Below are positions 2,451-21,061 of a stretch of 32,000 nt of DNA, in pieces (position 1 is the first letter of the stretch; each line of letters starts with the position of its first letter). The stretch covers positions 2,670,001 through 2,702,000 of the forward strand of contig NC_008340.1 in the NCBI RefSeq assembly GCF_000014785.1, read 5' to 3'. Below the pieces are notes generated by a model, which had not been told where the DNA came from, made no database searches, and worked only from the letters and a program-made list of their open reading frames with translations. The DNA is from Alkalilimnicola ehrlichii MLHE-1. Lineage in GTDB: Bacteria > Pseudomonadota > Gammaproteobacteria > Nitrococcales > Halorhodospiraceae. The translations under genes and the position numbers were made by a program.

Positions 2451-2453
2451 GCC

Positions 2454-3449: not shown

Positions 3450-3496
3450 CGGGCGACGGGCGACCGTGCGCCCGGCCCGGGGGTGGACTAGGGTGA

Positions 3497-6044: not shown

Positions 6045-6054
6045 CGGGTCGCGC

Positions 6055-7287
6055 TCAGGGCTGGAGCAGCGCGATGATCTGCTCTTTGAGCGGGCTGTAG
6101 CGCACGTGGCTCATCTCGATGGCCTCGCGCAGCAGCCGGCGGCCGTCGCCGAGCTTGTTCCGCTCTTGGGCGAAGCGGATGACCCGGTTTTCCGCCTCAT
6201 CGCGGATCACGCCCATGGGATCCAGCCCGTCGGCCACCCGCTGCGCCTGCTCCAGCAGCAGGCGCCGGTAGAGCACGATGCCCTTGTCCGAGGCCACCAG
6301 CCGCTCGCGGGTGCGGTCGGCGATGGCGCCCTGACTCACCCAGACCATGATGTCGCCGCCATCGACGAAGTCGACGATGTAGTCGCCGTGCTCATCCCGC
6401 CAGGGCACCGGGTAAAGGGGGATCTCGCGCTGGGGCGGCGCGCTGCGGCCCTCCGGCGGGAGGTAGCAGGCATACCAGTAGTGGCGGGTGTGGGTGTCAT
6501 CCATCGGCACGCGGAACTGGAAGCGGTGCTGGTTGCCGGTGCCCACCCTTAAGGCGCAGGGGAAGATCAGCGGATGGCCGGTGCGCCAGTCTTCGTCCTC
6601 CTCGCTGCCCCCCGCCACGATCCGCCGCTTGATGATGCCGTACTCAAAGACATCGAACCCGATGCGCTGGTGGTGCTTAAGGTACTGGGTGGGGGCGGGC
6701 TCGCCGCGCTCGCTGCGCACCCCGGCCAGGTGGTGGCCGTGGAGCCACTCCACGTGCGCCGGGTCGACGCTGTTCTCCATGATCTGCAGCCAATTGCAGG
6801 GCAACTCGGCGACACCGATGTCGCGCAGGGCATCGTCCTGCAGCAGCAGGTCGTAGCGGGGCAGCAACGGCGCGGGATCGGGCCCGATGTAGGCAAACAC
6901 CAGGCCGCCCAGCTCCTGGACCGGGAAACCCCGGGTGGCCGCGCGCCGGAGCAGCGCCGGCTTCTGTCGCGGCTCGGCGGGCATGGCCAGGCAATGGCCG
7001 TGGTGGTCGAACTTCCAGCCGTGGTAGGGGCAGGCGATGCCCTCCTCATCCACGTGGCCGCACCGCAGGGAGGCGCCGCGGTGGGTGCAGTGCTCGTCGA
7101 TCAGCCCCAGCCCGCCGGCCGGCGTGCGGAAGAGCACCAGGTCCTCGCCCAGCAGCCGGCGGGCCAGGGCCCGGCCGGGACGCACCTCCACGCTGGCGGC
7201 CAGCGGCCACCAGTAGCGGCGCAGCAGCTCGCCCATGGTCGTGCCGGGGCCGATGCGGGTGAGGGTCTCCTGGCGCTCCGGGGTCAT
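6055..7287 (-). CDS. Rieske [2Fe-2S] non-heme iron oxygenase, alpha-subunit type
   Basis: Rieske motif CTHRG…(17)…CPYHGW. Mononuclear iron motif ENSVDPAHVEWLH (E-x3-D-x2-H-x4-H). The ATG overlaps the methyltransferase stop codon (ATGA). Confidence 0.85.
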   Translation of the reverse strand: MTPERQETLTRIGPGTTMGELLRRYWWPLAASVEVRPGRALARRLLGEDLVLFRTPAGGLGLIDEHCTHRGASLRCGHVDEEGIACPYHGWKFDHHGHCLAMPAEPRQKPALLRRAATRGFPVQELGGLVFAYIGPDPAPLLPRYDLLLQDDALRDIGVAELPCNWLQIMENSVDPAHVEWLHGHHLAGVRSERGEPAPTQYLKHHQRIGFDVFEYGIIKRRIVAGGSEEDEDWRTGHPLIFPCALRVGTGNQHRFQFRVPMDDTHTRHYWYACYLPPEGRSAPPQREIPLYPVPWRDEHGDYIVDFVDGGDIMVWVSQGAIADRTRERLVASDKGIVLYRRLLLEQAQRVADGLDPMGVIRDEAENRVIRFAQERNKLGDGRRLLREAIEMSHVRYSPLKEQIIALLQP

Positions 7288-8027
7288 GGCCGCCCCTGCC
7301 CCCGCGCGCCGCTCTCCGGCGCGCCACCGGCTTCGGCACCCGGGAAGCGCCGGCGCAGCCCCTCCGGGTCACCGGGTCGACCCTGGACCAGGGTGAGCCC
7401 GCTGGCCACCGGCAGGGTGAACAGCTCCAGCCCGGGATCGGCGCGCAGGGCCGCCATCAAGTCGCAGACGCTGTGCTGGTAGGCCCGGTCCTCGCCGTAG
7501 AAGGTGCTGGTCCGGCGTACGGTGCTGTCGTGGAACAGGGTGATGGCGCCGGTATCCAGCTTGGGGAGGAAGGCCAGGTAGTCGTAACAGGCCTGTGCCG
7601 CGGTGTGCAGTCCGTCCACCATCAGCAGCCCCACCGCGCCCAGTCCGGCGTAGGCCGGGTCGGCCGCGAAGGACTGCGTGGTGTGGCGGTGGTGGCGCAC
7701 GTTGGGTGTGCCCAGGGCGTCGAAATGGGCCTCCACGGCGCCGGGATCGGCCCAGAAGCCGTCGGCGAAGGAGGGGTCGATGAAGTGGACCTCGCCGCGC
7801 TCCTGGTTGTCGTTCAGCGCGCGGGCGATGACGCTGGGCGCGAAGCCCCGGTAGGACCCGATGACCACCGCCCGCTCCGGCCTAAGGATGCGGCCCAGGG
7901 CGTAGTAGAGCCAGCCCAGGCCCAGGTTGTGGTCGGCCAGGCGCTGGCCGTGCCCCATGCGCAGCAGATCCGGCTGCTCGAACAGCCGGCCGATGAAGCC
8001 ATCCAGGGTGGTGGCGGGGTCGGTCAT
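7284..8027 (-). CDS. Probable class I SAM-dependent methyltransferase (CmcI/TylF-like)
   Basis: VVIGSYRGFAPS glycine-rich motif at the position expected for a SAM-binding loop. Size is about 250 aa. Translationally coupled to the Rieske gene. Family call is by recall. Confidence 0.5.
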   Translation of the reverse strand: MTDPATTLDGFIGRLFEQPDLLRMGHGQRLADHNLGLGWLYYALGRILRPERAVVIGSYRGFAPSVIARALNDNQERGEVHFIDPSFADGFWADPGAVEAHFDALGTPNVRHHRHTTQSFAADPAYAGLGAVGLLMVDGLHTAAQACYDYLAFLPKLDTGAITLFHDSTVRRTSTFYGEDRAYQHSVCDLMAALRADPGLELFTLPVASGLTLVQGRPGDPEGLRRRFPGAEAGGAPESGARGQGRP

Positions 8028-8136
8028 CTAGGGTGTTTTCCCGGCATTGGCGGTGAATGGGTTGGAATCAGGCCTTCTAGGACTAATCGACCATGGGCCC
8101 ACCGCTGTCAAGCGGTTGCGGCCCGCCACCCGCGGC

Positions 8137-10188
8137 TCAGTGGGCGTCATCGCCCGGGCCCGGGTCGTCCGGCGGCGCGTAGACGGCCTGCGCCCGGGTG
8201 TAGAACAGCGGGTCCCAGACGCCGTGCTCCGGGGGGCCGATGGCGGAGGCCTTCCAGCCGCCGAAGGGTGCCCGCGGGTCGATGGCCGCGCCGGCGCCGT
8301 TGAGTCGCAGGAGACCGGCCTGCGCCTGGGCCAGGAAGCGCCGCTGCACCGCCGGATCGTTACTGTACAGGGTCGCGGCCAGCCCCTGGGGCACGCCGTT
8401 GAGCCGGTCCAGCGCCTCGTCGAGGTCCGCCACCGGCACCAGCACCACCACCGGGCCGAAGCTCTCCTGCTGCATGCACTCGGCGTCCGGGGGCAGGCCG
8501 GTGAGCACAGTGGGGGCGTACCAGTTGCCCTGGGCCCAAGCCGGCGGCACCCGGCCGCCGCAGAGCACATTGGCGCCCGCGGCGCGGGCGCGGGCGACGA
8601 TGCCCTCGATCCGCGCCTGCGCGGCCCGGGAGACCAGCGGACCGACAACGGTGTCCGGCGCCTCCGGCCGGCCCGGGCGCAGCGCCTGCACCCGGGCCAG
8701 GAAAGCCTCGGTGAAGCGGTCCAGCACCGAGGAGGCCACCAACAGGCGGCGCACCGCGGTGCAGCGCTGGCCGGCGAAGCTGAAGGCGGCCCGGGCGAGT
8801 TCCCCGGCGGCCCGTTCCGGGTCGGCGTCGGCCATGACCAGGGCGGCGTTGTTGCCGCCCAGCTCCGCCTGCAGGGGCGTGCCGTGCAGCGCGCAGGCGG
8901 CCGCCACCTGGCGCCCGGCGGTGATGGAGCCGGTAAAGCTCACCGCCTGCACCCGGGCATCGGCGGCCAGGGTGTCGCCGGTGGCCGCCCCGCCCTGCAC
9001 CAGGTTCAGCACCCCCGGGGGCAGGCCGGCGTCCAGACCGGTCTGCATCAGCATCCGCGCCAGTTCCGGGGCCTCCGGCGCCGGCTTCCAGACCACGCTG
9101 TTGCCCCAGCGCAGGGCCGGTCCGATCTTGCCCAGGGGCAGCGCCAGCGGGTTGTTCCAGGGGGTGATGGCGGCCACCACCCCCCGGGGCCGGTGGCGCA
9201 CGCTCACCCCCGGCGCCAGGGCCCCGGGCGGGGTCGGTGCCATGGGCTCGAGGCTGGTGGCCAGCAGGGCCAGGGCGTAGTCGAACTCCGCCCCGGCCTC
9301 GAGGGAGGGCTTGCCCACCTCCCGGATCAATGCGGCCACCAGTTCGTGGCGCTGCTGTTGAAGCCGCGCTTCCCAGGCCTTCAGCATGGCAATGCGCTGG
9401 CTGTCCGGCAGTGCCGCCCAGCCCGCCCCGGCCGCCCGGGCGGCCTCCACCGCCGCGCCGACCAGGGGGGCGTCGGCGGCGCCGGTCCGGCTGAGGATCC
9501 GCCGGTGGTCACAGGGGTCGTGGCGGGTGAGCTGCTCCGGCGCGGCCGCCCGATGCCATTGCCCGGCGATGCAGGCGGCGGGCTGCAGGTCGCGCCCGGG
9601 TGTCGGCCTGCGCGTTGCCGCCCCGCCGTCATCCGGCTCACCCAGGCGCGCCCGGATGTCCGCCGTGGTCAGCGCGGCGCAGGCCCGATCCGCTAGGTGC
9701 CTCAGCGCCAGGCGGGCGTGCAGCGGGTCGTAGGAGGCCACCGCATCCACCGCCAGCCAGACCTGGAAACCGGCCTGGTAGGCGTCCAGCACGGTGGCCT
9801 GGACACAGGCATGGGTGTGCAGGCCACTGACGACCACTGTGTCCACGCCCTGCTCGCCCAGCCACGCCGCGGTCCCGGCCCCGCCGAAAGCACTGTAGTA
9901 GGGCTTGGCCAGGACGGCTTCACCCGGTGCCTCGGCCAGGGCCGGCGGTGGGGCCGCCCCGGGGGTGCCGCCGACGCAGGCCCAGTGGGCCCGGCGCTGC
10001 CAGTGGGGCATGCGGTTATGGCCGTCCGCGGCGATAAGGGTGCGGACATGGCACACCGGCAGGCTGCGGCGACGGAAGCCGTCCAGCAGCGTCCGGGCCT
10101 GCCGGATGGCGGCCCCGGCCTCGGCCGCATCAACCCCCCGGTCCAGGTAGTCCTGTTGCCAGTCCACCAACAACAAGGCGGCACGCAT
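8137..10188 (-). CDS. Fusion protein: N-terminal isochorismatase-family cysteine hydrolase plus C-terminal aldehyde dehydrogenase
   Basis: N-terminus has LLLVDWQQDY and VSGLHTHACVQATVLDA, typical of the isochorismatase fold. C-terminus has ALDH motifs ELGGNNAALV and FSFAGQRCTAV (catalytic Glu and Cys). I prefer ATG 10188, 2 nt after the upstream stop codon, over the track start at 10233. Confidence 0.8.
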   Translation of the reverse strand: MRAALLLVDWQQDYLDRGVDAAEAGAAIRQARTLLDGFRRRSLPVCHVRTLIAADGHNRMPHWQRRAHWACVGGTPGAAPPPALAEAPGEAVLAKPYYSAFGGAGTAAWLGEQGVDTVVVSGLHTHACVQATVLDAYQAGFQVWLAVDAVASYDPLHARLALRHLADRACAALTTADIRARLGEPDDGGAATRRPTPGRDLQPAACIAGQWHRAAAPEQLTRHDPCDHRRILSRTGAADAPLVGAAVEAARAAGAGWAALPDSQRIAMLKAWEARLQQQRHELVAALIREVGKPSLEAGAEFDYALALLATSLEPMAPTPPGALAPGVSVRHRPRGVVAAITPWNNPLALPLGKIGPALRWGNSVVWKPAPEAPELARMLMQTGLDAGLPPGVLNLVQGGAATGDTLAADARVQAVSFTGSITAGRQVAAACALHGTPLQAELGGNNAALVMADADPERAAGELARAAFSFAGQRCTAVRRLLVASSVLDRFTEAFLARVQALRPGRPEAPDTVVGPLVSRAAQARIEGIVARARAAGANVLCGGRVPPAWAQGNWYAPTVLTGLPPDAECMQQESFGPVVVLVPVADLDEALDRLNGVPQGLAATLYSNDPAVQRRFLAQAQAGLLRLNGAGAAIDPRAPFGGWKASAIGPPEHGVWDPLFYTRAQAVYAPPDDPGPGDDAH

Positions 10189-10190
10189 GG

Positions 10191-11339
10191 TCAGGCCCGC
10201 GCCCCCTGCAGTACTTCGGTCAACGACGCGCACAGGGCCTGGCCCATGGCCCGGGTGCCCACCGCGGTGGGCTGCGCGCCCTGAATATCGGCGGTGCGCA
10301 CGCCCCGGGCGAGGGTCCGGGCGATGGCCGTCTCCAGGGCATCGGCCAGTGCCGGCAGGCGGAAACTCTCGCGCAGCATCATGGCCAGCGAGCAGACCTG
10401 GCCGATGGGATTGGCCCGGTCCCGGCCGGCCAGGTCCCAGGCGGCACCGTGGGCGGTCTGGTAGACCGCCTGGCCGGCGGCGCCGTAGTTGCCGGACCAG
10501 GACATGCCCCGCGAGCCCATGAGCAGGCTGCCGCAGTCGCCCAGGATATCGCCGAACATGTTGGGGCAGACGATGACGTCGAACTGCCGGGGGTCGGCGA
10601 TGAGCTGGTAGGCGGCGTTGTCCACCTCCAGGGTCCGGCAGCGCACGGCGCCGTGCTCGCCGGCGACCGCGGTCAGGGCGTCGTGCCAGAGGGCGCTGAT
10701 GGCAGGCACGCCGCCCGGTTTGGTGACAACGACCAGGTCACCGCGCCGCTGCCCGGCCAAGCGGAGGGCCGTGCGCAGGATGCGCTCCACCTCGTCGGCC
10801 CGGTAGCGGCAGACCTGGTAGGCGCTGCGCGCCGCACCCTCGCCTTCACTGCCCCACTCGCCACAGTAGAGCCCGCTGGCATTCTCGCGCACGATGAGGA
10901 CGTCCGCCGAGCGGGCGGCCTCCGGGCGCAGCACGCCGGCATCAGCCAGGGCGGGCCAGTGGCGCAGCGGGATCAGCTTGCAGTAGAGGTCGAAGTGCCG
11001 GCGCAGGTCGTAGACGAAGCGCCCGCCCCCGGGGCCACAGAGCACCGCCCCGCCCTGAGCGAAGACCTGAGCGCAGAAGTCGCGCACCTCCGGGGTCAAG
11101 CCGCGACCAGTGAGGCGCTCGGCCTGCCGGCCGATGGGCCCGCCGGTGCGCACCTCGAAGCGCTGGCCGGTGGCCTCGCCGAGGAGCCGCAACAGCGAAA
11201 GAGCAACGTCGATGACTTCCGGGCCGACGCCCTCCCCCGGCAGCACCCCGACCAGAAAGGCCTCACCGCGCTCCGTGCCCGTGCCACGGGGCGGTGCATG
11301 GTCGGTGCCGGGGTGCGACGGGCAGGCTTCGGGGTGCAC
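10191..11339 (-). CDS. Isocitrate/isopropylmalate dehydrogenase family oxidative decarboxylase (IPMDH/tartrate-DH-like)
   Basis: VLPGEGVGPEV N-terminal motif and family signature NMFGDILGDCGSLLMGSRGM. The GTG start at 11339 gives an extension of about 20 aa, so the start is uncertain. Confidence 0.8.
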   Translation of the reverse strand: MHPEACPSHPGTDHAPPRGTGTERGEAFLVGVLPGEGVGPEVIDVALSLLRLLGEATGQRFEVRTGGPIGRQAERLTGRGLTPEVRDFCAQVFAQGGAVLCGPGGGRFVYDLRRHFDLYCKLIPLRHWPALADAGVLRPEAARSADVLIVRENASGLYCGEWGSEGEGAARSAYQVCRYRADEVERILRTALRLAGQRRGDLVVVTKPGGVPAISALWHDALTAVAGEHGAVRCRTLEVDNAAYQLIADPRQFDVIVCPNMFGDILGDCGSLLMGSRGMSWSGNYGAAGQAVYQTAHGAAWDLAGRDRANPIGQVCSLAMMLRESFRLPALADALETAIARTLARGVRTADIQGAQPTAVGTRAMGQALCASLTEVLQGARA

Positions 11340-11474
11340 GGGCTGCGCTTCTCCTCGAGGCAGTGGCGTTCGCGGTGACGGTGGCCCGGCGCCGGAGCGC
11401 CCGCCGTTGTCGAAAGCATAGTCGGGCGGGGACCGGGGTAAAGCGCCCGCGCCGGGCTTGGGGGCCGCGCCCGT

Positions 11475-12446
11475 TCAGGGCAGACGCGGGGTGCGCCGCC
11501 ACTCCCGGCCACGCCAGAGGTCGGCGAGACGGTCACGCAGCGAGCGCGGGTCGTGCAACGGCACCGGCCGGCCCGAGGCGGGCCCGTCGATCTCCGCCAT
11601 GGCCGCGATGAGCTGCCGCTGGGCGCTGCGGTAGCTGTCGAGACGAATGGGATAGGGGTGGGTGCGCAGCCGCCCCACGTGGGGGTTGGTGTTGATCTCA
11701 TAGACCTGGGGCCGGCCGCCGATTAGGGCGAAGTCGGCCCGGCCGTAATCGATATGACCGGTCTCGAAGGCGGGCGCGAGTGCATCGGCAAAGGGATTGT
11801 CGTTGACCAGCCGGAGCTCATCCTCGTACAGCGCCTGGCCGGCGATGCCGTTCTGGCCGTATTTCGCCGCCCAGTGATCCTGGTGGGCGCACAGCGCCGG
11901 GACGATTCGCCCGCCCACCCGGTAAGCGGCCAGCTTGCGGTAGAGCCCGTCGGCCACCGGCTCGGCGTGGAACTGGACGACCATCAGCTCGCGGCGGGGT
12001 ATCCCCCGGTCGATCGCCTCGGCCACCGCCTGCGCCAGGGACTCGGGGGTGTCCAGGCACCCGGTCAACGGGCCGCGGTGGGCGGACTCGGTGCGCAGGA
12101 AGACGGGGTACGCCCCGTCCGGCGGCGTCTCATCGACGCGCCAGACACCGAAGTCGTTGAACCGCCGGGCATGCAGATCGCGCAGCAGTTCGAAGCGTGA
12201 GCGCACCCGTGCCGGGTCGTTGAGCACGCACGCGCCGGCCTCGCGCAGTTGCCGGTGGATCCGCCCGGCCATCTCCAGGTCCCAGAAGTTGAGGCGGTCG
12301 AAATCGGTGAAGATGTAGGTGGCACGAGGCAGCCGCCGCCGGCGGAACAGCCGGTGGTAGGACATGACCCGGAAGTCGAAGGCATCGGATTGCTGCAGCG
12401 GGCGGTGGGTGTGCGCGTGCGCCTGGGTGCTGAACAGGACAATCAT
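11475..12446 (-). CDS. ATP-grasp-like protein, paralog B
   Basis: Shares blocks with 2454..3449: YIFTD[YF]DRL, NDFGV, YPVF[IL]R, AEP…YRK…GGRI[IV]P, IDYGR.D, YEINTNP. Its start overlaps the HExxH gene stop codon by 4 nt. Confidence 0.55.
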   Translation of the reverse strand: MIVLFSTQAHAHTHRPLQQSDAFDFRVMSYHRLFRRRRLPRATYIFTDFDRLNFWDLEMAGRIHRQLREAGACVLNDPARVRSRFELLRDLHARRFNDFGVWRVDETPPDGAYPVFLRTESAHRGPLTGCLDTPESLAQAVAEAIDRGIPRRELMVVQFHAEPVADGLYRKLAAYRVGGRIVPALCAHQDHWAAKYGQNGIAGQALYEDELRLVNDNPFADALAPAFETGHIDYGRADFALIGGRPQVYEINTNPHVGRLRTHPYPIRLDSYRSAQRQLIAAMAEIDGPASGRPVPLHDPRSLRDRLADLWRGREWRRTPRLP

Positions 12447-13438
12447 CCGGTGGCGTGGTCCATGTACGCTTTGGCGTTGGCCATGAGGGCGCGCCCGTGC
12501 CGGCTCAGAAGGCCGTGGGCGGCGACCACCTCGTGGCCGGCGCGGAAGTTGGCGGCGTCCTCCGCCATGGCCTGGCGCGCACCGGCCCGCTCGGCCTCGT
12601 CCAGCAGCCCCGAGTCCAGCAACCGGCCCATGGCCCAGTGCATGCGGGCGGAGACGAAGGTGGCGTGGTAGATGCCGTCCATGGGCCGGGGGTCTTGGCG
12701 CAGCGGCGAGGGGTAGAGCTCCTCGTCATGATTGAGGACCAGCGGGGCCTCGGTGCAGAAGCCGAACAGCAGGCTGTGCGCGCTCTCGTGGGCGATGACC
12801 TCGGCCATGGCAATGCGGTCGGGATGCGCCCCGGCGTTGAGAAACAGCGCCCCCCAGAGCTGAAAGTGGGAGCCGCCGTGGAACTCGCCGGCGTCATGGT
12901 CGCCACCGGCCACGCCGACCACGTGGTGGACGATGGCCTCCACCTCGCCGGCCAGCTCCGGCGCGGCCTGCCGCAGCAGCCCAAGGCCCTCGTGGTAGCG
13001 CTGCACGAAGGCCGTCTCCAGTTCCGCCGGCGGCGGATGCAGCGTCAGCCCCGTCGGCATCTCCGCCATCATCTTATCCTGGTAGAGGCGACTGGTGGCG
13101 CACGCCGATGGCGGTCGCAGCCCCTCGACCCGCTGGCCATCCGGCAATGGCGGTTCGTTGCCGATCCTCTGAAAGGCGGTCCGGGCCTGCGCCAGGTCGC
13201 CGTCCAGCAGGTCGATGACCAGGTCGTAGTAGCGGCCGAACAGGCTCGGGGCGTGCGCCTGTCCCGTGGCGAGCCGGCTGAGCAGGGGATCCAACGACAG
13301 GTCGGGCAGCGGGGTGTGGGCGTTGAAGCGCTCGAAGACGTACCCGAGGCTGGCGCCCAGCTCACGGTGCATGGCCTGATCCAATTGCCCCGCCCGTTCC
13401 GGATCGGGCTCGAACCCATAGTGCACCGTGGCCGTCAC
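12443..13438 (-). CDS. HExxH-motif protein (putative metal-dependent peptide-modifying enzyme, possibly aKG-HExxH / TIGR04267-like)
   Basis: VIAHESAHSLLF motif in a soluble protein with real-protein composition. GTG start with AGGGAG 6 nt upstream. Family membership was not verified. Confidence 0.6.
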   Translation of the reverse strand: MTATVHYGFEPDPERAGQLDQAMHRELGASLGYVFERFNAHTPLPDLSLDPLLSRLATGQAHAPSLFGRYYDLVIDLLDGDLAQARTAFQRIGNEPPLPDGQRVEGLRPPSACATSRLYQDKMMAEMPTGLTLHPPPAELETAFVQRYHEGLGLLRQAAPELAGEVEAIVHHVVGVAGGDHDAGEFHGGSHFQLWGALFLNAGAHPDRIAMAEVIAHESAHSLLFGFCTEAPLVLNHDEELYPSPLRQDPRPMDGIYHATFVSARMHWAMGRLLDSGLLDEAERAGARQAMAEDAANFRAGHEVVAAHGLLSRHGRALMANAKAYMDHATG

Positions 13439-13491
13439 GCGCCACTCCCTTGCTGTTGTTACTCGGTTGTCGCGCTCGGTCCCGCCGGTGG

Positions 13492-13653
13492 TCAGGTGAC
13501 CTTCATGCCCACCTTGCCGCCGACTTTCGCCCCGATGGTGGTGGTCCGGTCGAGTACCTTGTCGCCCACCTTTGCGCCGGTTCTGACGCTGCTGTCGAGC
13601 CGGAAGCCCAGCAGGCGGCGGGCATCCAGATTGATGCCGTCGGTCTTGTCCAT
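13492..13653 (-). CDS. Unlisted small ORF (53 aa), candidate precursor/scaffold peptide: MDKTDGINLDARRLLGFRLDSSVRTGAKVGDKVLDRTTTIGAKVGGKVGMKVT
   Basis: Hand-translated, ATG 13653 to TGA 13492. GAGGGGA (13660-13666) lies 6 nt upstream of the ATG. About 47 of 53 codons end in G or C. Same strand as the HExxH gene and 53 nt upstream of it. Confidence 0.5.
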   Translation of the reverse strand: MDKTDGINLDARRLLGFRLDSSVRTGAKVGDKVLDRTTTIGAKVGGKVGMKVT

Positions 13654-13706
13654 GGTCGATCCCCTCAGGTTACCGGCCGTCCGGCCGGGGAATTGTTATC
13701 AAACCT

Positions 13707-13741
13707 CGCTTCAAGACTAGCCGGCTGCGGGATCAACGCAA
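13707..13741 (-). promoter_or_regulatory. Possible sigma70-like promoter for the small-ORF operon (TTGCGT-16 nt-TAGTCT on the minus strand)
   Basis: Motif match only, in the 170-bp lower-GC divergent intergenic region 13654-13823. -35 at 13736-13741 and -10 at 13714-13719. Confidence 0.2.
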
Positions 13742-13823
13742 GGCAGCGGGGAGGATCAACCTGTACTAATAGGGTAAACCGTCTAGGCTTGCGCAAAAGT
13801 GACAACGCCCAAGGGGATCGGCG

Positions 13824-15023
13824 ATGACGGCGCGCCGCGTGCAACTGCTCAAGGTGGTCTCGGGGCTGGATATCGGGGGGGTGCGTAGCGCAGAGCTCGG
13901 TTTCACCGCCGAGTTGCAGGCGCGGGGGGTCGGCGTTGGCGGCGTAATCGTGACCGGGGGCGCCATGGCCGCCCGTTACGCCCGGCTGTTTGACGGCCAC
14001 TGGCTGCTGGACACCCGTCTGCCCGAGTTCCGAGGCGGACGGTGGGAGCGGCTGCGCCGAACGGTGGTAAACCTGGGGCGCAGCCGGCAGGGCGCCCGGC
14101 GGCTGGCCGGTGACCTTCGCGGGACCCGGTGGGCGTCGGCGGGCACGGTGGTGGCGGTGCGCCATGCGCCGCTGCTGCCTCTGGCCGCGCTGCTGGCCCG
14201 CCGGCTCGACCTCCCGTTGCTCTGGCACATGCCCAACCCGGTCCACGACCGGCTCGGCCGGGCCTATTTCCAGGCCCTGCTGCGTCTGGCCGGCGGCACG
14301 GCGGTGGGCAATAGCCGCTACACCCTGGCCAGCCTCGGCGCCGGCGATGGCCCGGTGATCTATCCCGGCTTCTCCCCCGCCCGGGTGGCCCTCGACGAGA
14401 CCGCCCCCGAGCTGCGGGCGTCGCTGGGCATCCCGGCCGCGGCGCCGGTATTCGCGGTGGTGGCCCGGCTCACCCCGGACAAGGCCACTGACTGGGTGCT
14501 GGCGGCCTTTCTCGATTCGGCGGCCTTTCGCAACGGGGCGCATCTGCTGATCGCCGGCGGCCCGCTGGACTCCCGGTTCGCCCTTGACCTAAGGGCTCAC
14601 GCCGGTGAGGCGGGCGACGGCCGGGTGCACTTTCTCGGCGAGGTCGAGCAGGTGGCGCCGGTTTACCGGGCCGCGGATGTGCTGGTGGCGGGCCGGCGCA
14701 CGGTGGAACCCTTCGGGATCTCGCTGGTGGAGGCCATGGCCTCGGGACTGCCGGTCATCGCCCCGGGCGGCGGGGGGCCGGACGAGGTCGTCACCGACGG
14801 GGTGACCGGGTGGTTGCTGCCGGACCGGGGCGTGGCAGCCTATACCCGGGCGCTGGACCGCGCCTGGTCGGACCGCGCCCGCTGGCCGGTGATGGGTGGG
14901 CAGGCGCGCACCGCCGCCGCGCCGTTCAGCCTGGCGCACCAGGCCGGCCGCTACCTGCAACTGGTGCGGGCGGTGCTGGACCCGGACGGCGACGACCCGG
15001 CGCCCATGGTGAGGGCGCGTTGA
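13824..15023 (+). CDS. Glycosyltransferase family 4 (GT-B, retaining type)
   Basis: EPFGISLVEAMASGLPVIA (E-x7-E motif). Confidence 0.85.
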   Translation: MTARRVQLLKVVSGLDIGGVRSAELGFTAELQARGVGVGGVIVTGGAMAARYARLFDGHWLLDTRLPEFRGGRWERLRRTVVNLGRSRQGARRLAGDLRGTRWASAGTVVAVRHAPLLPLAALLARRLDLPLLWHMPNPVHDRLGRAYFQALLRLAGGTAVGNSRYTLASLGAGDGPVIYPGFSPARVALDETAPELRASLGIPAAAPVFAVVARLTPDKATDWVLAAFLDSAAFRNGAHLLIAGGPLDSRFALDLRAHAGEAGDGRVHFLGEVEQVAPVYRAADVLVAGRRTVEPFGISLVEAMASGLPVIAPGGGGPDEVVTDGVTGWLLPDRGVAAYTRALDRAWSDRARWPVMGGQARTAAAPFSLAHQAGRYLQLVRAVLDPDGDDPAPMVRAR

Positions 15024-15029
15024 AGACCG

Positions 15030-15737
15030 ATGGGGGACGACGTGACGGACAGCATCGCCGTGTTACAGGCCCGGACCACCTCCCGCCGACTGCCCGCCAA
15101 GGTGCTGCTTCCGGTGGGGGGACTGCCGCTGGTGGTGCTGGCCGCCCGGCGCGCGGCGAACACCGGCCGGCGGGTGCTGGTGGCCACCTCCACCGATCCC
15201 TCGGACGACGAGCTGGCGCGGGTGGTGCGCGCGCATGGGCTGGCCTGTGCGCGCGGCAGCCTGGAGGACACCCTGGGGCGGTTCGTCCAGGTGCTGACCG
15301 ATTACGCCGATGACACGCTGGTCTTCCGCCTGACCGCGGACAACGGACTGCCCGACGGGCGCCTGCTGGATGACCTGGCCGACGACCTCCACCGGCGGGA
15401 CCTGGACTACCTGGCCTGCAACGGGGCGCCCTGTGACCTGCCCGACGGTTTCAGTGCCGAGGTGACCCGGCTGCGGCACCTGCGCGCCGCCCACCGCGGG
15501 CCCACCACGCCCTACGACCGCGAGCACGTCACGCCCGCGGTGATCCGCGCCCGGGGACAGGCCTGGTTCACCGGCTACGCCGGTCGCGGGCTGGCGGGCC
15601 AGCGCTGCACCATCGACACCCTGGATGACTACCTGGCCGTCTGCCGGCTGTTTGTGGGCTACGCCGACCCGGTCGGCACGCCAGCGACGCGCCTGCTGGA
15701 GGCCTTGGCCACCCCGGCCCGCGATGCCCATGCCTGA
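15030..15737 (+). CDS. SpsF-like cytidylyltransferase (acylneuraminate/CMP-sugar cytidylyltransferase family)
   Basis: N-terminus IAVLQARTTSRRLPAKVLLPVGGLPLV is typical of the SpsF/COG1861 family. Lies in the same operon as PseG-like and NeuB-like genes. Confidence 0.7.
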   Translation: MGDDVTDSIAVLQARTTSRRLPAKVLLPVGGLPLVVLAARRAANTGRRVLVATSTDPSDDELARVVRAHGLACARGSLEDTLGRFVQVLTDYADDTLVFRLTADNGLPDGRLLDDLADDLHRRDLDYLACNGAPCDLPDGFSAEVTRLRHLRAAHRGPTTPYDREHVTPAVIRARGQAWFTGYAGRGLAGQRCTIDTLDDYLAVCRLFVGYADPVGTPATRLLEALATPARDAHA

Positions 15738-17049
15738 GACCGGATTCACCGCCTACCGGGAACTGGAGCGACGCCTGCAGCGGTGTCACGGGGCGCATTA
15801 TGCGCACTACCCCCACGCCATGATGACCCTAGACCGGGAGTTGCGGAACGTGCTGGTCCAACGCCCCTGGCTGGCCGAGCGCAACCTGGCCCGCTATGCC
15901 CGGCAAGCCCTGGTCCGGGCACTCTATGGCCGGGTGCAGGACCACGCCCTGGCCCGGCACCCGCCCGGACAGGGGCGCCCCACCTGGCTGGTGGAGTTGC
16001 GCAAGTTCCCCGCCCTGCGCCGCGCCCTCGACCGGTCGCGGGATGCCGGGGTGCACTGGGTGCCGATGGGCGAACGGCCACGCTCACCCTGGGCGCTGCT
16101 GCGACCCGAGGCGGTCAGCGTGGATGCCATGATCAGCGGCTATCCCATGAAGCGCTGCTTCGCCCGGCTGCGCCGCCGGGGCGTGACGCCGCTGCTGGAG
16201 GACCCGGCCTTCATGGCCCGGCTGGAGCACCTGGCCCGGGCGGGGCTGGAGAACGCCACCCGGCACCTGCGGGCCATGAACGTGACCGCCGTGATCACCA
16301 CCGGGGACGCCGGGCCCGCCCCGCGCCTGCTCTGTGCGGCGGCACGGCGGCTGGGCATCCCCTACCTGGTGGTCTGCCACGGCTACCTGCAGGACCCCAA
16401 CCTGGTCTCTGTCTGTCCGGTGCATGCGGATGCGCTGCTGGTCTGGTCTGCGGCACAGCAACGGCAGCTGCGGACGGTGTTGCCGCCGGATCAGGCGGAC
16501 CGGGTGCACTACTTCGGCAACCCCTGCGCGGACGGCCGCCGGGGCACCGGGACGGGTGATGCGGTACTGATCGCCCTGGAGCCGCAGGAGGCGATGGCCG
16601 CCGCCCCCCGGCAGGCGGAGCTGCTCTCCCGCCTGGTGACCCAACTGCAGGCAGCGGGCCGGCGGGTGGTGGTGCGCCCCCACCCCAAGAGCCGGGCGTG
16701 CGCGCAGACCCGGCGGCTGATCCAGGACTGGGGCTGCGAGGCCTCCCGGGGCACGCTGGAGCGGGACCTGGACGAAGCGGCTGCGGTGGTGGGCGCCAAC
16801 ACCAGTGTCTTGTTCGAGGCCGCCACCCGGGGGGTTCCCGCCTTCCAGGTGGCCGAACTGGCCCGGCTGACCATCGAGGGCGCCCGGCGCCGGCCGCTGG
16901 CCGAACTGCCGGCGGCCGTGGCGCAGCCGGCGGGCACGGGACCGGACACCGCGCCGCCGCCCGGGGCGGCCGCCTGCGCCCGGGGTCTGATCGAGCTGAT
17001 CCGACACCACGGGGCCCGCGCCCCCGGGGAGCGGGCGGCCCATGGCTGA
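15724..17049 (+). CDS. Hypothetical protein, possibly a GT-B sugar transferase (VVRPHPKS 'HP' motif)
   Basis: In-frame ATG at 15724 (or 15730) overlaps the upstream stop codon; the track start at 15625 lies inside the previous gene. The C-terminal half resembles capsule/sialyl-type transferases only loosely. Confidence 0.35.
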   Translation: MPMPETGFTAYRELERRLQRCHGAHYAHYPHAMMTLDRELRNVLVQRPWLAERNLARYARQALVRALYGRVQDHALARHPPGQGRPTWLVELRKFPALRRALDRSRDAGVHWVPMGERPRSPWALLRPEAVSVDAMISGYPMKRCFARLRRRGVTPLLEDPAFMARLEHLARAGLENATRHLRAMNVTAVITTGDAGPAPRLLCAAARRLGIPYLVVCHGYLQDPNLVSVCPVHADALLVWSAAQQRQLRTVLPPDQADRVHYFGNPCADGRRGTGTGDAVLIALEPQEAMAAAPRQAELLSRLVTQLQAAGRRVVVRPHPKSRACAQTRRLIQDWGCEASRGTLERDLDEAAAVVGANTSVLFEAATRGVPAFQVAELARLTIEGARRRPLAELPAAVAQPAGTGPDTAPPPGAAACARGLIELIRHHGARAPGERAAHG

Positions 17050-18079
17050 GCCCTGGCCGAACAGCGGGGGTTGGCTGATCCGGGCGGATGCCGCCCCGGC
17101 CATCGGCATCGGCCATGTCAACCGCGCCCTGGCCCTGGCCCGGGCGCTGGCCCCCCGGCCGGTTCTGATCGCCACCCGCCGCGATGGGGACTACCGCCTG
17201 GGCTACCAGTGGCTGGCGGAGTCAGGCCGGCCCCTGTGCCCACTGGACGGCGAGGCGGACTTCCTCGACCTGCTGCGACGTTGCCGGCCCGAGACCCTGT
17301 GCCTGGATATCCTCGACACCGGGCGCCGGGAGATGGGGGTCTACCGTACCCTGGCACGGCGGGTGGTGAGTTTCGAGGACCTGGGGCCCGGGGCGGCATT
17401 GGCCGATGTGGTGATCAACGACCTCTACGGCCCCGCGCCGGGGCAGGCCCACGTGCTCGCCGGGGTGGAACACGCCCTGCTGTCACCGGCCTTTGACGAC
17501 GCCTCGCCCGCCCCCGGGGCCACCCCGGAACGGGCGGAACGGTTGCTGCTGCTGTTCGGGGGCACCGACCCCGCCGGTCTGGTCCACCGCTGCCTGGACG
17601 CCCTGGGCCGGCTGGCGCTTCCGGTTCGGGTGGAGGTGGTGGTGGGGCCGGGCTGGCGCCGGCGGCGGATCCGGTTGGCGGACTGGGGCCTGTGTGGCCG
17701 TGTCCACCGGGACGTGCAGGACATGCCGGCGGTGATGCGAAACGCCGACCTGGCGCTCTCCAGCGCCGGGCGCACGGTCACCGAGCTGATGGTGATGCGG
17801 GTGCCCACCCTGGTGCTCTGCCAGAATGAGCGCGAGTTGCGCCATACCCACGCCAGCGCCCGCCACGGGGTCTGCAACCTGGGCCTGGGCCGGGCGGTGC
17901 CGGTGGACCGGCTGGCGCGGGAGATCGCGGCGCTGGTCGCGGACCGGGCGCGGCGCGAGCAGATGCGGGCCCTGGCGGACCGCGCCGTTCGCGGGCGCAG
18001 CAACCGTGCCATTGTGGCGCGAATCGACGGCCTGCTGCAGGGCCGGTCACGACGGCTGGACACGGGAGTGACGCCATGA
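17042..18079 (+). CDS. PseG/SpsG-like UDP-sugar hydrolase / glycosyltransferase 28-like protein
   Basis: LIRADAAPAIGIGHVNRALALARAL N-terminal motif is typical of PseG/SpsG. 8-nt overlap with the upstream ORF. Confidence 0.65.
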   Translation: MAEPWPNSGGWLIRADAAPAIGIGHVNRALALARALAPRPVLIATRRDGDYRLGYQWLAESGRPLCPLDGEADFLDLLRRCRPETLCLDILDTGRREMGVYRTLARRVVSFEDLGPGAALADVVINDLYGPAPGQAHVLAGVEHALLSPAFDDASPAPGATPERAERLLLLFGGTDPAGLVHRCLDALGRLALPVRVEVVVGPGWRRRRIRLADWGLCGRVHRDVQDMPAVMRNADLALSSAGRTVTELMVMRVPTLVLCQNERELRHTHASARHGVCNLGLGRAVPVDRLAREIAALVADRARREQMRALADRAVRGRSNRAIVARIDGLLQGRSRRLDTGVTP

Positions 18080-19122
18080 CGGAGCTGCATATCGACGGCC
18101 GGGCCATCGGCCCGAACCACCCTCCTTACGTCATCGCCGAGGCAGGCGTTCATCACTACGACAGCCTGGAGCTGGCCCGGGCCTATGTGCTGGAGGCCCG
18201 CAAGGCGGGCGCCGACGCGATCAAGTTCCAGACCTATACGGCGGACGAGCTTGTGACCCGGTGGGCCCCGCTCTACTGGACCGACGCACGATTCGAGACC
18301 CAGCACCAGGTCTTCAGCACCAAGCGCGGCTTGAGCCCGACGGAGTACCGGTCGCTGTTCGACTACGCCCGCGAGCTGGGCATCACGCCATTGTCCACGC
18401 CCTTCGACCCCGCCTCGGTGGACCTGCTGGACGGCCTGGGGATGGCCGCCTTCAAGGTGGCCTCGGCGGACATCACCCACCGGCCGCTGCTCCAGGATAT
18501 CGCCGGCAAGGGCAAGCCGGTGCTGTTGTCCACCGGTGCGGCGTCGATGGCGGAGGTGCGTTCGGCGCTGGAGGTGCTGGAGTCCGAAGGGGTTCCGGTG
18601 GCCCTGCTGCACTGCTCGCTGGCCTACCCCACCCCGGTGGACCAGGCGAACCTGTCGCGGCTGGGGCTGCTCGCCGAACAGTTCCCCGGGCGGGTGCTGG
18701 GCTATTCCGACCACACGCCGCCCCGGGATTCGGCACTGCCCTGCCCGGCCAGCGTCCTGCTGGGCGCCCGGGTGATCGAAAAGCACTTCTCGCTGAACCG
18801 GCACCTGGCCGGGGACGATCACTACCACAGCGTGGACCCGGACGGTCTGGCGCGGCTGGTGCGCGACTGCCGGGATGCCTGGGCGATGAGCCGGCCAGCG
18901 GCAGAGATCACCGCCGCCGAGGAGAGCGCCCGCACCCAGGCCCGCCGCAGCGTGGTGGCCGCCACCGATCTGCCCGCGGGCACCACGCTCGCAGCCGGGC
19001 ACCTGGCCTACAAGCGGCCCGGCACGGGGGTGCCCCCGACGCAGGCGGAGGACCTGATCGGGCGACGGCTGGCCGTGGACCTGGCCCACGATGAGCTGAT
19101 CACGCCGGACAAGCTGGCCTGA
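18076..19122 (+). CDS. N-acetylneuraminate synthase family enzyme (NeuB/PseI/SpsE-like nonulosonic acid synthase)
   Basis: YVIAEAGVHH…GADAIKFQTY motif and a C-terminal SAF-like domain (RRSVVAATDLPAGTTL…KRPGTG). ATGA overlap with the upstream gene. Confidence 0.85.
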   Translation: MTELHIDGRAIGPNHPPYVIAEAGVHHYDSLELARAYVLEARKAGADAIKFQTYTADELVTRWAPLYWTDARFETQHQVFSTKRGLSPTEYRSLFDYARELGITPLSTPFDPASVDLLDGLGMAAFKVASADITHRPLLQDIAGKGKPVLLSTGAASMAEVRSALEVLESEGVPVALLHCSLAYPTPVDQANLSRLGLLAEQFPGRVLGYSDHTPPRDSALPCPASVLLGARVIEKHFSLNRHLAGDDHYHSVDPDGLARLVRDCRDAWAMSRPAAEITAAEESARTQARRSVVAATDLPAGTTLAAGHLAYKRPGTGVPPTQAEDLIGRRLAVDLAHDELITPDKLA

Positions 19123-19131
19123 CGAGCGCGC

Positions 19132-20253
19132 TCACCCGGCCAGTGCCTCTCGCAGGCGCGCCAGCGGCACCTGGATGTCGGCAGTCAGGCCGCCCCCGGC
19201 ACCCGTTGCCGGACAGAGGATGGCGCGGTAGTCCAGGCCGGACTGGGCGGCCAGGTCACGGAAGCAGGGGTTGCGGTGGCCCTCGGGGACCAGTTCCACC
19301 ACCCGGGTACCCGGGCGGCACCAGACGAGGTTGGTGAGCGCCGCACCGTGGGGCGCCACGATGACCTCGGCGTCGGCGAACAAGGCCTGCTGGCGGGGCA
19401 CGCTCAGGCCGCTGCACTGGTGACTCTCGAAACCCGACTCATCCACCAGCAGCCGCTCCACCGCCGCCTCGTTGGCCGCCTGCCGGCGAGGGGCATCGCG
19501 CCGCGACAGGTAGATGCGACGGCCCGGGGTGGTGACGGCCGGCGGCCGCCACCCGGTCAGCTCCCGCAGCGCCCTCGCCAGCCAGACCGGCGACACCCAA
19601 CTCCCCCTGCTCCGCACCGGTACAAGCGCCTGCTCCGCGGTCAGCGCGGGGTGGTCGGCAAAGGCCACCACCCGCTCCTGGTCAATGCCGCACAGGGCCA
19701 GGGACTGTTGTTGCCAGGGGTAGCCGCCATAGGCCATCAGGAAGCTGTCGACCCGGCCCAGGTCCACGCCGGACTCGCGCAGAAACCAGAGGTCGGCGAG
19801 GGTGTCCGCCCACCAGTGGTAGTAGTTGTTGCAGCCGGGATCGTGGTTGCCGAGGACGGCGACGGTGCCCAGCCGGACAGCCGGGCGGGCGGCGCGGCCC
19901 AGCCGGGCACTGTAGCGCCAACCGCCGCGCAGCAGATGGCGCAGGGCCGGGGCAGACTTCGGATAGCGCACGGGCCGCCCGCCGCTGGTGAGGATGACGG
20001 CGCGGCGCCGCAGCGGGTCATGCGCCAGTTGCGGGGCCGGACTCGGCAGCAGGATCAACGGCCGGCGCACCCGCCCCACCCCAACCGGCGCGATGGGGGG
20101 CGTCTGCCGCCAGTTTACGGCCTGGTCCACGGCCCCGTCGCCGGCCTGCTCGATGGCGTGCAACGGCACCGGGCTGGGCTGCCAGGCGCAGGCCGGGTGG
20201 CTATTGAAATCGGTGCCCAGGAGCCGATCCACGGCCCTGACCCAGGGCGACAT
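19132..20253 (-). CDS. DUF563 / GT61-like glycosyltransferase
   Basis: NYYHWWADTLADLWFL and EVIVAPHGAALTNLVW motifs. I prefer ATG 20253, 1 nt after the upstream stop codon, over the track start at 20340. Confidence 0.65.
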   Translation of the reverse strand: MSPWVRAVDRLLGTDFNSHPACAWQPSPVPLHAIEQAGDGAVDQAVNWRQTPPIAPVGVGRVRRPLILLPSPAPQLAHDPLRRRAVILTSGGRPVRYPKSAPALRHLLRGGWRYSARLGRAARPAVRLGTVAVLGNHDPGCNNYYHWWADTLADLWFLRESGVDLGRVDSFLMAYGGYPWQQQSLALCGIDQERVVAFADHPALTAEQALVPVRSRGSWVSPVWLARALRELTGWRPPAVTTPGRRIYLSRRDAPRRQAANEAAVERLLVDESGFESHQCSGLSVPRQQALFADAEVIVAPHGAALTNLVWCRPGTRVVELVPEGHRNPCFRDLAAQSGLDYRAILCPATGAGGGLTADIQVPLARLREALAG

Positions 20254-20254
20254 C

Positions 20255-21061
20255 TCAGCCCTCCTCAGGGGCCCGGAAGGGCAGGCCGGCGAACTGCTCG
20301 ATATCACTGAGCATGGCCCGGTGGCGCTTCTCAGCGACACCGCTGTAATCCTTGAGAATGGGAACGGTCGTACCGTCCCGCAGGACGAGCAGCGGCCGGA
20401 CCTGGCGTTGCCGCCCCTGCTTGCGATAGCGCACCTGCAGGGTGGTGTGATCGATTCGGGCCAGTGGCCAGTCCTGCTGACGCCGGCCCCAGATCCAGCG
20501 TCGCCCGAGGCTCAGCCGGTCCCGTACGCGATCGACCGCCAAACGGCGCTGTGGGGCGCCCCAGAGCAGGCCATACAAGGCGAAACCGCCAAGCAGCCCG
20601 GCCACGGCCAGAACATAGCGGTGATCCTGATAGCGCACGGTGAACGCGCCCCGGGGCGTGTCCAGGTGGGCGTTAATCGCCCGCTGGATCTGTTGCAATT
20701 CGCTGCGCCGGTTGAGCGCGCCGTGGTGCAGGGTCAGCGGGATGGGTTCCCCACTGTGCGGCTGCAGTTCCACCCGAACGCCCGGCGGCGCGGGCAATGC
20801 CCGCTCGCGGCGGGCTCGGCTCTCGCGCAGCACCGCCCCGGACAGGCTGTCGGCCCGTAGCGGGTGGCGGGAGAGCGGCGCCCCGATCGGGCTCTCCCTT
20901 ATCAGCATGCCCTCGTCGTCGACGAAGGACAGAATGCCGCCCGAGGGTACCGCCACCAGCAACGAAACGGCCCCGAGCAGCAGCAGACCGAAGAATATCA
21001 ACTTGCCGGTGAAGCCATTGTGGTACTCCAGCCGGCCACCCATTTCCCTTCTCTTCCGCAT
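20255..21061 (-). CDS. Membrane protein of unknown function (two predicted TM segments)
   Basis: Hydrophobic stretches LIFFGLLLLGAVSLLVAV and YVLAVAGLLGGFALYGLLW. ATG 21061 has GGGGAG 5 nt upstream. Confidence 0.5.
   Translation of the reverse strand: MRKRREMGGRLEYHNGFTGKLIFFGLLLLGAVSLLVAVPSGGILSFVDDEGMLIRESPIGAPLSRHPLRADSLSGAVLRESRARRERALPAPPGVRVELQPHSGEPIPLTLHHGALNRRSELQQIQRAINAHLDTPRGAFTVRYQDHRYVLAVAGLLGGFALYGLLWGAPQRRLAVDRVRDRLSLGRRWIWGRRQQDWPLARIDHTTLQVRYRKQGRQRQVRPLLVLRDGTTVPILKDYSGVAEKRHRAMLSDIEQFAGLPFRAPEEG

Follow-up and report, generated by a model that had tools for sequence, protein, structure and literature searches.

A conserved small gene beside HExxH oxygenase and ATP-grasp genes of Alkalilimnicola ehrlichii encodes a candidate RiPP precursor with tandem lysine-bearing repeats

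Introduction

The alpha-ketoglutarate (aKG)-HExxH oxygenases and the ATP-grasp ligases are both known as families of tailoring enzymes for peptides that are ribosomally synthesized and then modified post-translationally (RiPPs), the latter activating a carboxylate by way of an acyl phosphate. Characterised aKG-HExxH enzymes beta-hydroxylate His, Asp, Phe, Gln or Pro, and the outcome of the reaction is unpredictable from the sequence of the enzyme (PMC13060819). PflC and PosC, which belong to the same family, cleave the peptide backbone oxidatively, leaving an amide terminus, and can hydrolyse it as well (PMC12636437). Here we describe a 53-codon open reading frame (ORF) on the minus strand of a 32,000-nucleotide stretch of the Alkalilimnicola ehrlichii MLHE-1 genome (contig NC_008340.1, positions 2,670,001 to 2,702,000; hereafter, the window), immediately upstream of genes for an HExxH protein and an ATP-grasp protein. 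A first-pass annotation of the window, made from the letters of the DNA, had placed this ORF at the head of an HExxH/ATP-grasp unit and proposed that it encodes a RiPP precursor or a scaffold peptide; the linkage of peptide, HExxH and ATP-grasp genes recurs in relatives. We report that the ORF is a conserved gene, and that its product is probably the precursor peptide of a three-gene cassette in which an HExxH oxygenase and an ATP-grasp enzyme would iteratively modify its repeat units, the ligation probably being of a kind other than that of graspetides.

Results

Conservation of the peptide gene

Spurious ORFs abound in high-GC DNA, and the test of coding must therefore be comparative. Sixteen homologs of the adjacent HExxH protein were aligned, and a scan of one genome per GTDB species yielded 185 stretches encoding a relative of this protein; 80 of these loci were fetched and compared. 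In nearly all 80, the HExxH gene is preceded by a small co-oriented ORF whose end lies within approximately 30 to 400 nt of it. A six-frame motif scan recovered 79 peptides from 73 loci and the window, and variant peptides were found in three further loci (L021, L039 and L061), such that a homologous, co-oriented ORF stands next to the HExxH gene in 76 of the 77 assessable loci, these being the 80 loci minus three that are cut off upstream. The host taxa are Alpha-, Beta- and Gammaproteobacteria, Planctomycetota, Verrucomicrobiota, Gemmatimonadota and Myxococcota, together with metagenome-assembled genomes of a Synechococcus (Cyanobacteria) and a member of the Chitinophagaceae, and the loci span at least six phyla. 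The closest relatives, from Thioalkalivibrio (L081) and from a metagenome (L082), also carry the peptide ORF. Across nine pairs of close relatives, the ratio of nonsynonymous to synonymous substitution rates (dN/dS) in the peptide frame is 0.11-0.46, indicating purifying selection.

Because co-oriented homologs are conserved across loci and the frame is under purifying selection, the 53-codon ORF is a real, conserved gene and not a chance ORF. The first-pass annotation had judged it to be coding and had pointed to the DNA upstream of HExxH/ATP-grasp homologs in relatives as the place to look for a conserved frame, and both the count of loci and the dN/dS values bear it out. Five loci (L002, L003, L023, L038 and L078) contain two peptide genes each. 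In L003, the HExxH and ATP-grasp genes enclose the second copy (5133-5267), whose core, IGSKIGAPK, consists of a single unit.

Sequence signals at the peptide ORF

Read on the minus strand from 13653 to 13492, the ORF encodes MDKTDGINLDARRLLGFRLDSSVRTGAKVGDKVLDRTTTIGAKVGGKVGMKVT followed by a stop codon, in exact agreement with the earlier translation, and its ATG is the first start codon after an in-frame stop. The G+C fraction at third codon positions (GC3) is 0.87, or 47 of 54 codons with the stop included, which confirms the previous estimate of about 47 of 53 codons ending in G or C as in the neighbours: neighbouring real genes have a GC3 of 0.88-0.93, as compared with 0.57 and 0.76 for the overlapping opposite-strand ORFs 13450..13827 and 12455..13720. 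Direct reading of the sequence likewise upheld the reported Shine-Dalgarno sequence of the peptide gene, six nt before its ATG, and the 53-nt gap to the co-oriented HExxH gene, which starts with GTG at 13438 and has its own Shine-Dalgarno sequence, AGGGAG, 6 nt upstream. A consensus scan of positions 11000-14000 found no terminator-like site in the spacer between the two genes. On the other side of the peptide gene, the divergent region that had been taken for a promoter was confirmed in its length and composition, with a GC content of approximately 0.61-0.63 versus 0.70-0.76 around it and a GT4 glycosyltransferase gene (13824..15023, plus strand) opposite; no sigma-70 consensus site was found in the same scan. 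A perfect 7-bp inverted repeat, CCGGCCG-GA-CGGCCGG (13673..13688), lies in the 5' untranslated region of the peptide gene just upstream of the Shine-Dalgarno sequence, and could be an operator or an mRNA hairpin. The features of the locus are collected in Table 1.

Table 1. Features of the A. ehrlichii cassette, in window coordinates
Feature	Coordinates	Strand	Evidence
Putative precursor peptide gene, 53 aa	13492..13653	-	Translation, GC3 0.87, homologous ORFs, dN/dS
Shine-Dalgarno sequence GAGGGGA	13660..13666	-	6 nt 5' of the peptide ATG; direct sequence reading
Spacer between peptide gene and HExxH gene, 53 nt, with AGGGAG at 13450..13445	13439..13491	-	Direct sequence reading
Divergent intergenic region, 170 bp, lower GC, shared with the GT4 gene	13654..13823	.	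Composition
Predicted aKG-HExxH-type peptide hydroxylase, 331 aa, motif H217-E-S-A-H221	12443..13438	-	TIGR04267, ChlH fold
Predicted orphan short ATP-grasp ligase, 323 aa	11475..12446	-	AlphaFold2 fold, Foldseek
Putative leader recognition motif, residues 7-19 (INLDARRLLGFRL)	13597..13635	-	Logo of 79 precursors
Putative core repeat block 1, GAKVGDKV, residues 26-33	13555..13578	-	Conforms to the family unit G-[AGS]-K-[VIL]-G-x-K
Putative core repeat block 2, GAKVGGKVGMKV, residues 41-52, three consecutive KVG-type units	13498..13533	-	K-K spacing of 4

The exact 53-aa sequence of the peptide is absent from a public collection of 15 billion proteins, in which several peptide homologs from other genomes are present and labelled merely 'hypothetical protein'. 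A word-index search with the peptide gave no match, and a phmmer search with the single peptide against 1.84 billion representatives returned just four. Rfam detected no credible family within positions 13000-14200, the sole match being livK (E 0.38, 24.5 bits versus a gathering threshold of 65), and PADLOC reported no defence family.

A conserved N-terminal motif and a repetitive core

The leader-like N-terminal half described by the first-pass annotation proved to contain a motif that is conserved in the logo of 79 precursors, with the consensus [IV]xLDx[ST]KL[LYF]GF[RK][IL], to which the window's INLDARRLLGFRL conforms. The glycine of this motif (Gly16 in the window peptide) is present in 79 of 79 sequences, the Leu and Asp of the L-D pair in 68 and 69, the Leu after the basic residue in 74 and the Phe in 64. 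The motif co-varies with the type of ATP-grasp enzyme encoded at the locus (described below): KLLGFR occurs alongside the short type and KL[YF]GFK alongside the long type, with Leu at motif position 6 in 48 of 59 short-type peptides and Tyr or Phe there in 14 of 20 long-type peptides. The leader residues D10, S/T and K were considered as a graspetide-type cross-link, a candidate that we rejected since the window peptide has A-R-R there and 18 of the 79 homologs have Arg in place of Lys.

After a variable spacer, the family core consists of one to nine G-[AGS]-K-[VIL] units, with Lys at every fourth residue. Of 319 K-x-G sites, 242 have Gly at position -2, 202 have Ala, Gly or Ser at -1, 212 have Val, Ile or Leu at +1, and 254 have Lys at +4; the spacing between lysines is four in 267 cases, the runner-up spacing accounting for 29. 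Minimal cores such as IGSKIGAPK reduce the irreducible element to G-x-K-Phi-G-x(0-2)-K, where Phi is an aliphatic residue. The window peptide has five Lys-bearing units in its core, and the repeat GAKVG[D/G]KV that had been recognised in it is indeed present twice (residues 26-33 and 41-48), as a local form of the family-wide unit.

The cores are positively charged (median net charge +6). Asp and Glu together make up 6% of core residues, show no positional conservation and are absent from 8 of the 79 cores, and the tails that follow the last Lys are variable (KVT, KPG, KV, KA, K and others) and mostly neutral. The significance that had been attached to the TTT run and the Asp residues of the window peptide was not sustained: both are specific to this sequence rather than features of the family, and the TTT run has no counterpart among the 79 peptides. 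Profile searches of NCBIfam and the PDB with 53 precursors identified no family. Comparison across the family gives strong support to the view that the N-terminal motif and the variable-copy core represent the leader/core architecture expected of a RiPP precursor, with leader and core as putative roles.

The HExxH protein is predicted to be a peptide hydroxylase

The HExxH protein, 100% identical to its A. ehrlichii MLHE-1 counterpart, matches TIGR04267 (aKG-HExxH-type peptide beta-hydroxylase, IPR026337) with E 9e-35 and a score of 120.3 bits, the cut-off being 40, and its family profile matches the crystal structures of ChlH (8s5f, 7.6e-07) and SjiH. An AlphaFold2 model (predicted local distance difference test score, pLDDT, 91) gave only two Foldseek matches in the PDB, and these were again ChlH (8s5f, E 1.3e-10, TM 0.68) and SjiH (22ob); identity to ChlH is 16-17%. 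The HESAH motif and a PLRxDxRPMDGIxHA block are invariant in the 16 homologs; within them, H217, E218, H221, R247, D249, R251, D254 and H258 align to ChlH and SjiH. By hidden Markov model (HMM), motif and modelled fold, the protein is thus a bona fide member of the aKG-HExxH peptide hydroxylase family, in keeping with the earlier suggestion that it is akin to the peptide hydroxylases of RiPP pathways. The HExxH proteins are acidic (median net charge -17). That longer homologs, of 354-384 aa, might be natural fusions of peptide and enzyme was considered and rejected, as they result from mis-called starts.

Two unrelated types of ATP-grasp enzyme

The ATG of the short ATP-grasp gene overlaps the stop codon of the HExxH gene (ATGA). 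Each cassette gene in the window has a Shine-Dalgarno sequence of its own, and the peptide ORF heads a unit that is translationally organised. Its product has no Pfam or NCBIfam match. A model built with AlphaFold2 from 40 homologs (pLDDT 94) shows an ATP-grasp fold, and the top 50 structures found by Foldseek are RimK, LysX, ArgX and Ddl (best E approximately 1e-9). The segment GRADF...YEINTNP aligns to the Mg/ATP site of Ddl; the site residues D238, E250 and N252 are retained in the short enzyme, and D238, E250 and N254 are invariant. We therefore assign the ATP-grasp fold to this protein with high confidence, as predicted by the model, and agree in this respect with the first-pass annotation. 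None of 40 members of the short family matches a graspetide-maturase model in NCBIfam at E<=5; weak matches to Ddl were the only ones.

In tblastn searches of the 80 loci with 15 window proteins, only the HExxH protein (80/80) and the short ATP-grasp protein (56/80) were conserved, and in these 56 loci the short ATP-grasp gene adjoins the HExxH gene. A long ATP-grasp protein of about 620 aa is encoded in 21 loci that do not have the short type. In its central part it is a homolog of the cyanophycin synthetase N+G region (7lgn, 1e-47; the CphA2 structures 7ta5 and 8fxh were also matched), with a match to NF010623 at 4e-71 that covers model positions 117-573 of 871 and reaches 240 bits versus a cut-off of 877; against TIGR00768 it scores 47.8 bits (cut-off 143). 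An hhalign comparison of the short and long profiles detected no relation. Exactly one type of ATP-grasp enzyme is thus found in 77 of 80 loci (56 short, 21 long) and both in none, and two of the three loci without either have cut-off flanks. Judged by these profiles, the exchange of short for long is a non-orthologous replacement. As the two types are unrelated and always occur singly, ATP-grasp chemistry itself appears to be required in the pathway, and the reaction would have to be generic enough for two lineages to carry it out.

A self-contained cassette in varied surroundings

Greedy ORF calling in these high-GC loci gave many antisense shadow ORFs, and the gene neighbourhoods were therefore based on tblastn together with called genes. 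On this basis, a self-contained three-gene unit consisting of the peptide, the HExxH oxygenase and the ATP-grasp ligase is strongly supported by comparison of the loci, and the genes that flank it are otherwise unrelated from locus to locus. In nine loci (L006, L011, L013, L014, L015, L016, L019, L025 and L039), a flippase of MOP/Wzx type is encoded between the HExxH and ATP-grasp genes (e.g., L019:4911-6401; Polysacc_synt_3, with NF007773 at 8e-39, below cut-off), a four-gene variant that suggests export of the product or of a lipid-linked intermediate. In L082, an MFS gene lies downstream of the cassette.

In the window, a 135-nt gap in which no terminator-like site is present separates the cassette from downstream genes on the same strand. 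These are five minus-strand genes (4854..11339) encoding an isopropylmalate/tartrate-dehydrogenase-family protein, an isochorismatase-aldehyde dehydrogenase (ALDH) fusion of 698 aa, a methyltransferase, a Rieske oxygenase and a GT28-like protein, and they look like a small-molecule or sugar-tailoring operon. In the tblastn comparison with the 80 loci, none of the window's Iso_dh, isochorismatase-ALDH, methyltransferase, Rieske and glycosyltransferase genes was conserved with the cassette, apart from a few weak, paralog-level matches in unrelated loci.

The A. ehrlichii cassette lies within an island of nonulosonic-acid and glycosylation genes, which on its other side (13824..20340) includes the GT4 gene, a cytidylyltransferase (15030..15737), a NeuB-type synthase (18076..19122) and a GT61 gene (19132..20340). 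The Thioalkalivibrio loci L081 and L083 are also flanked by GT4, GT61, epimerase and Wzm/Wzt genes, whereas that of Pseudomonas sp. N040 (L084) is not. Hydroxylysine is a site of glycosylation in collagen, and the neighbourhood may reflect either synteny within a lineage or a link of the product to glycans.

Several further observations concern other genes. A separate ATPgrasp_ST gene stands beside a 7TM transglutaminase gene (Transglut_i_TM/7TM_transglut) in L082 (6260-7521), a few kb from the cassette, and belongs to a different ATP-grasp peptide-modification system. Genes on the plus strand of the window (639..4897), some 6.6 kb past the ATP-grasp gene, specify an ABC exporter of 603 aa (ABC_membrane + ABC_tran), a protein of 331 aa that belongs to no family and a 466-aa radical SAM protein of HemN-like type; they have no established relation to the cassette. 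Finally, a 517-aa minus-strand ORF (27007..28560) has a GC3 of 0.62, unusually low for this genome, and may be foreign DNA or a wrong frame.

Discussion

Comparative genomics strongly supports the reading of the 53-codon gene as one for a RiPP precursor, and from it we infer, as follows, which segments serve as leader and core, which residues are targeted, in what order the steps run and what the ligation partner would be. The N-terminal segment INLDARRLLGFRL would act as the leader that docks the peptide on the enzymes, and the tandem G-[AGS]-K-[VIL] core units, five in the window peptide, would be the sites of iterative modification. The acidic HExxH enzyme would hydroxylate one side chain in each cationic unit, Lys being our first guess and the aliphatic residue (Val, Ile or Leu) our second; the complementary charges of enzyme and core (medians of -17 and +6) count in favour of this pairing. 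The ATP-grasp enzyme would then carry out a ligation mediated by an acyl phosphate. This is probably not the Lys/Thr-to-Asp/Glu cross-link of graspetides, because the acidic residues of the core are not conserved. The C-terminus is the only carboxylate present in every core, which leaves three options: (a) a nucleophile of the peptide, either the epsilon-amine of Lys or the new hydroxyl, attacks an activated free acid or amino acid; (b) the peptide's C-terminal carboxylate is extended in the manner of RimK or of the G domain of CphA; or (c) an occasional Asp or Glu is cross-linked as in graspetides. We consider (a) more likely than (b), and (b) more likely than (c). Option (a) fits the per-unit logic of the repeats and the weak Ddl-like signal in the ligase sequence; option (b) fits the structural neighbours of the ligase but not the variable tails; and option (c) is contradicted by the lack of conservation of Asp and Glu.

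Several observations weigh against this proposal. One assessable locus (L076) has no recognisable peptide ORF even though HExxH and ATP-grasp genes are present, and another with full flanks (L044) has the peptide and HExxH genes and no ATP-grasp gene within 4 kb. No protease is conserved with the cassette and an exporter is missing from most of the 80 loci, which is unusual for a secreted RiPP, and no domain resembling a RiPP recognition element (RRE) is evident. The short ATP-grasp enzymes are basic (median isoelectric point 9.25), a poor fit with the binding of a polycationic peptide that also counts mildly against option (a), and the nearest structures to the modelled ligase, those of RimK, LysX, ArgX and the CphA G domain, belong to enzymes that activate a peptide carboxylate and not a free acid. 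Moreover, Lys, Val/Ile/Leu and Gly are outside the reported substrates of aKG-HExxH enzymes (PMC13060819), and the type of reaction is not predictable given that one family member also cleaves the backbone oxidatively (PMC12636437).

Other explanations must be weighed against the same evidence, beginning with those that keep the peptide as a substrate of the ligase. It is unlikely, if conceivable, that the peptide serves as a scaffold or primer whose C-terminal carboxylate is extended by one or more amino acids, which are then hydroxylated or otherwise processed, perhaps with the aid of the downstream dehydrogenase, ALDH, methyltransferase and Rieske genes. Such a role would suit the closest structures (RimK, LysX and ArgX), the homology of the alternative enzyme to the N+G region of cyanophycin synthetase (by the 7lgn match and by NF010623, below its cut-off) and the small-molecule-type enzymes that follow on the same strand after 135 nt and no terminator-like site; yet the C-termini are variable and non-acidic, unlike the tails of S6 and LysW, the conserved internal repeat would be left without a role, and the downstream genes are missing from all 80 loci save for two weak paralog-level matches. 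The scaffold peptide offered by the first-pass annotation as an alternative is possible but weakly supported, in view of the unconserved C-termini. We regard as improbable the graspetide chemistry that the same annotation favoured, in which the ATP-grasp enzyme would close intramolecular macrocycles, through omega-amide or omega-ester bonds, that join the Lys/Thr/Ser and Asp/Glu side chains of the core, and the HExxH enzyme would add a tailoring hydroxyl. An ATP-grasp gene does adjoin that of a small peptide with a conserved leader, the window peptide contains D31, D35, T37-39 and five core lysines, and 71 of 79 cores hold at least one Asp or Glu. These acidic residues, however, occupy no conserved positions and are wanting in the other eight cores, the TTT run is found in the window peptide only, 0 of 40 members of the ATP-grasp family match an NCBIfam maturase model at E<=5, RimK, LysX, ArgX and Ddl account for the top 50 structures, and in 21 loci the enzyme is swapped for one resembling cyanophycin synthetase.

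By analogy with PflC and PosC, which cleave the backbone oxidatively, leave an amide terminus and can hydrolyse (PMC12636437), the HExxH enzyme might hydrolyse the backbone of a multi-core precursor, or alpha-hydroxylate or oxidatively cleave it at the periodic Gly, and free short Lys peptides, possibly amides, that the ATP-grasp enzyme would ligate. The periodicity of Gly in the core equals that of Lys and no separate protease is conserved, but the boundaries of the units and the lengths of the spacers are irregular and the window enzyme is distant from characterised members (16-17% identity to ChlH), which makes this route very unlikely in our estimate. Least probable of all is that the ORF encodes no substrate but a small protein with an accessory or regulatory function, or that it is an upstream leader ORF or part of a non-coding 5' untranslated region of the HExxH operon. 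Amino-acid conservation across phyla and dN/dS values well below 1 rule out a non-coding element, whatever weight is given to the 7-bp hairpin in the 5' untranslated region or to the missing entry for this genome in the public protein collection; nor does Rfam give a match beyond chance level (E 0.38, 24.5 versus 65 bits). A repeat number that varies while the N-terminal motif stays fixed is characteristic of substrates and not of regulators, and the duplication of the peptide gene in five loci likewise speaks against a non-substrate.

Returning to the iteratively modified precursor, a bolder form of this proposal, which we put forward as speculative and rather doubtful, is that the cassette defines a new RiPP class in which ribosomal (G-x-K-Phi)n peptides are iteratively hydroxylated on Lys, which would be a substrate new to the family, by an aKG-HExxH enzyme and then acylated or aminoacylated on Lys or hydroxy-Lys by an ATP-grasp enzyme. 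Such a pathway would yield a cyanophycin-like, branched polymer whose backbone is genetically encoded, and two unrelated ATP-grasp lineages would have been recruited independently for the same step.

In either form, the cassette is a candidate for a new RiPP-like family assembled from known enzyme superfamilies that does not look like a classical graspetide system. It is present in at least 185 species-level genomes and has more than a thousand metagenomic homologs, and it would offer a probable new substrate residue for HExxH oxygenases as well as an orphan ATP-grasp clade. The non-orthologous replacement of the ligase is a natural case that constrains the possible reaction. With a 53-aa peptide, two enzymes and a very clear substrate logo, the system is compact, easily cloned and directly testable, and it shows how a key gene of a finished genome was missed by small-ORF annotation.

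NCBIfam searches found no curated model for the peptide or the short ligase, and a search of a literature library for the combination of HExxH with ATP-grasp enzymes, for the motifs of the peptide or for cyanophycin-like ligases in RiPP pathways found nothing relevant. The closest described systems each resemble one part of the cassette. The aKG-HExxH RiPP pathways (ChlH/ChlBH triceptides, BpmH biphenomycins, PflC/PosC and PesO nitrilobacillins) share with it the hydroxylase family (TIGR04267/IPR026337) and fold, the HExxH...SPLRxDxRPxDGxxHA block and the position of the gene beside that of a small precursor peptide. The cassette differs from them in that its peptides carry Lys/Gly tetrapeptide repeats and not cyclophane motifs, NHLP/Gln strings or R(V/T)DN, that the partner enzyme is an ATP-grasp protein in place of a radical SAM, MNIO or asparagine-synthetase partner, and that the likely targets, Lys or an aliphatic residue, are not among the reported substrates (PMC13060819). 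Graspetides (microviridins, plesiocin, thuringinin and others) are similar in having a small leader-bearing peptide beside an ATP-grasp gene, with repeated core motifs; the cassette, in contrast, has no conserved Asp/Glu acyl donors and no match to the maturase family, and its enzyme can be swapped with one that is CphA-like. RimK acting on S6 and LysX/ArgX acting on LysW come closest in structure to the short ATP-grasp enzyme, and in both the substrate is a small ribosomal polypeptide. S6 and LysW have conserved acidic C-termini, whereas the cassette peptides end variably and are cationic; the short enzyme is unmatched by the RimK/LysX family HMM, for which the long type scores below cut-off. 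Finally, CphA1 and CphA2 resemble the long ATP-grasp type, by homology in the N+G region, and cyanophycin is polycationic and repetitive as the cassette peptide is. The window's own ATP-grasp enzyme is of the short type, unrelated to the one that resembles cyanophycin synthetase, and the long type itself differs from CphA in lacking a full N+G+M arrangement (240 versus 877 bits) and in being linked to a ribosomal peptide and an oxygenase.

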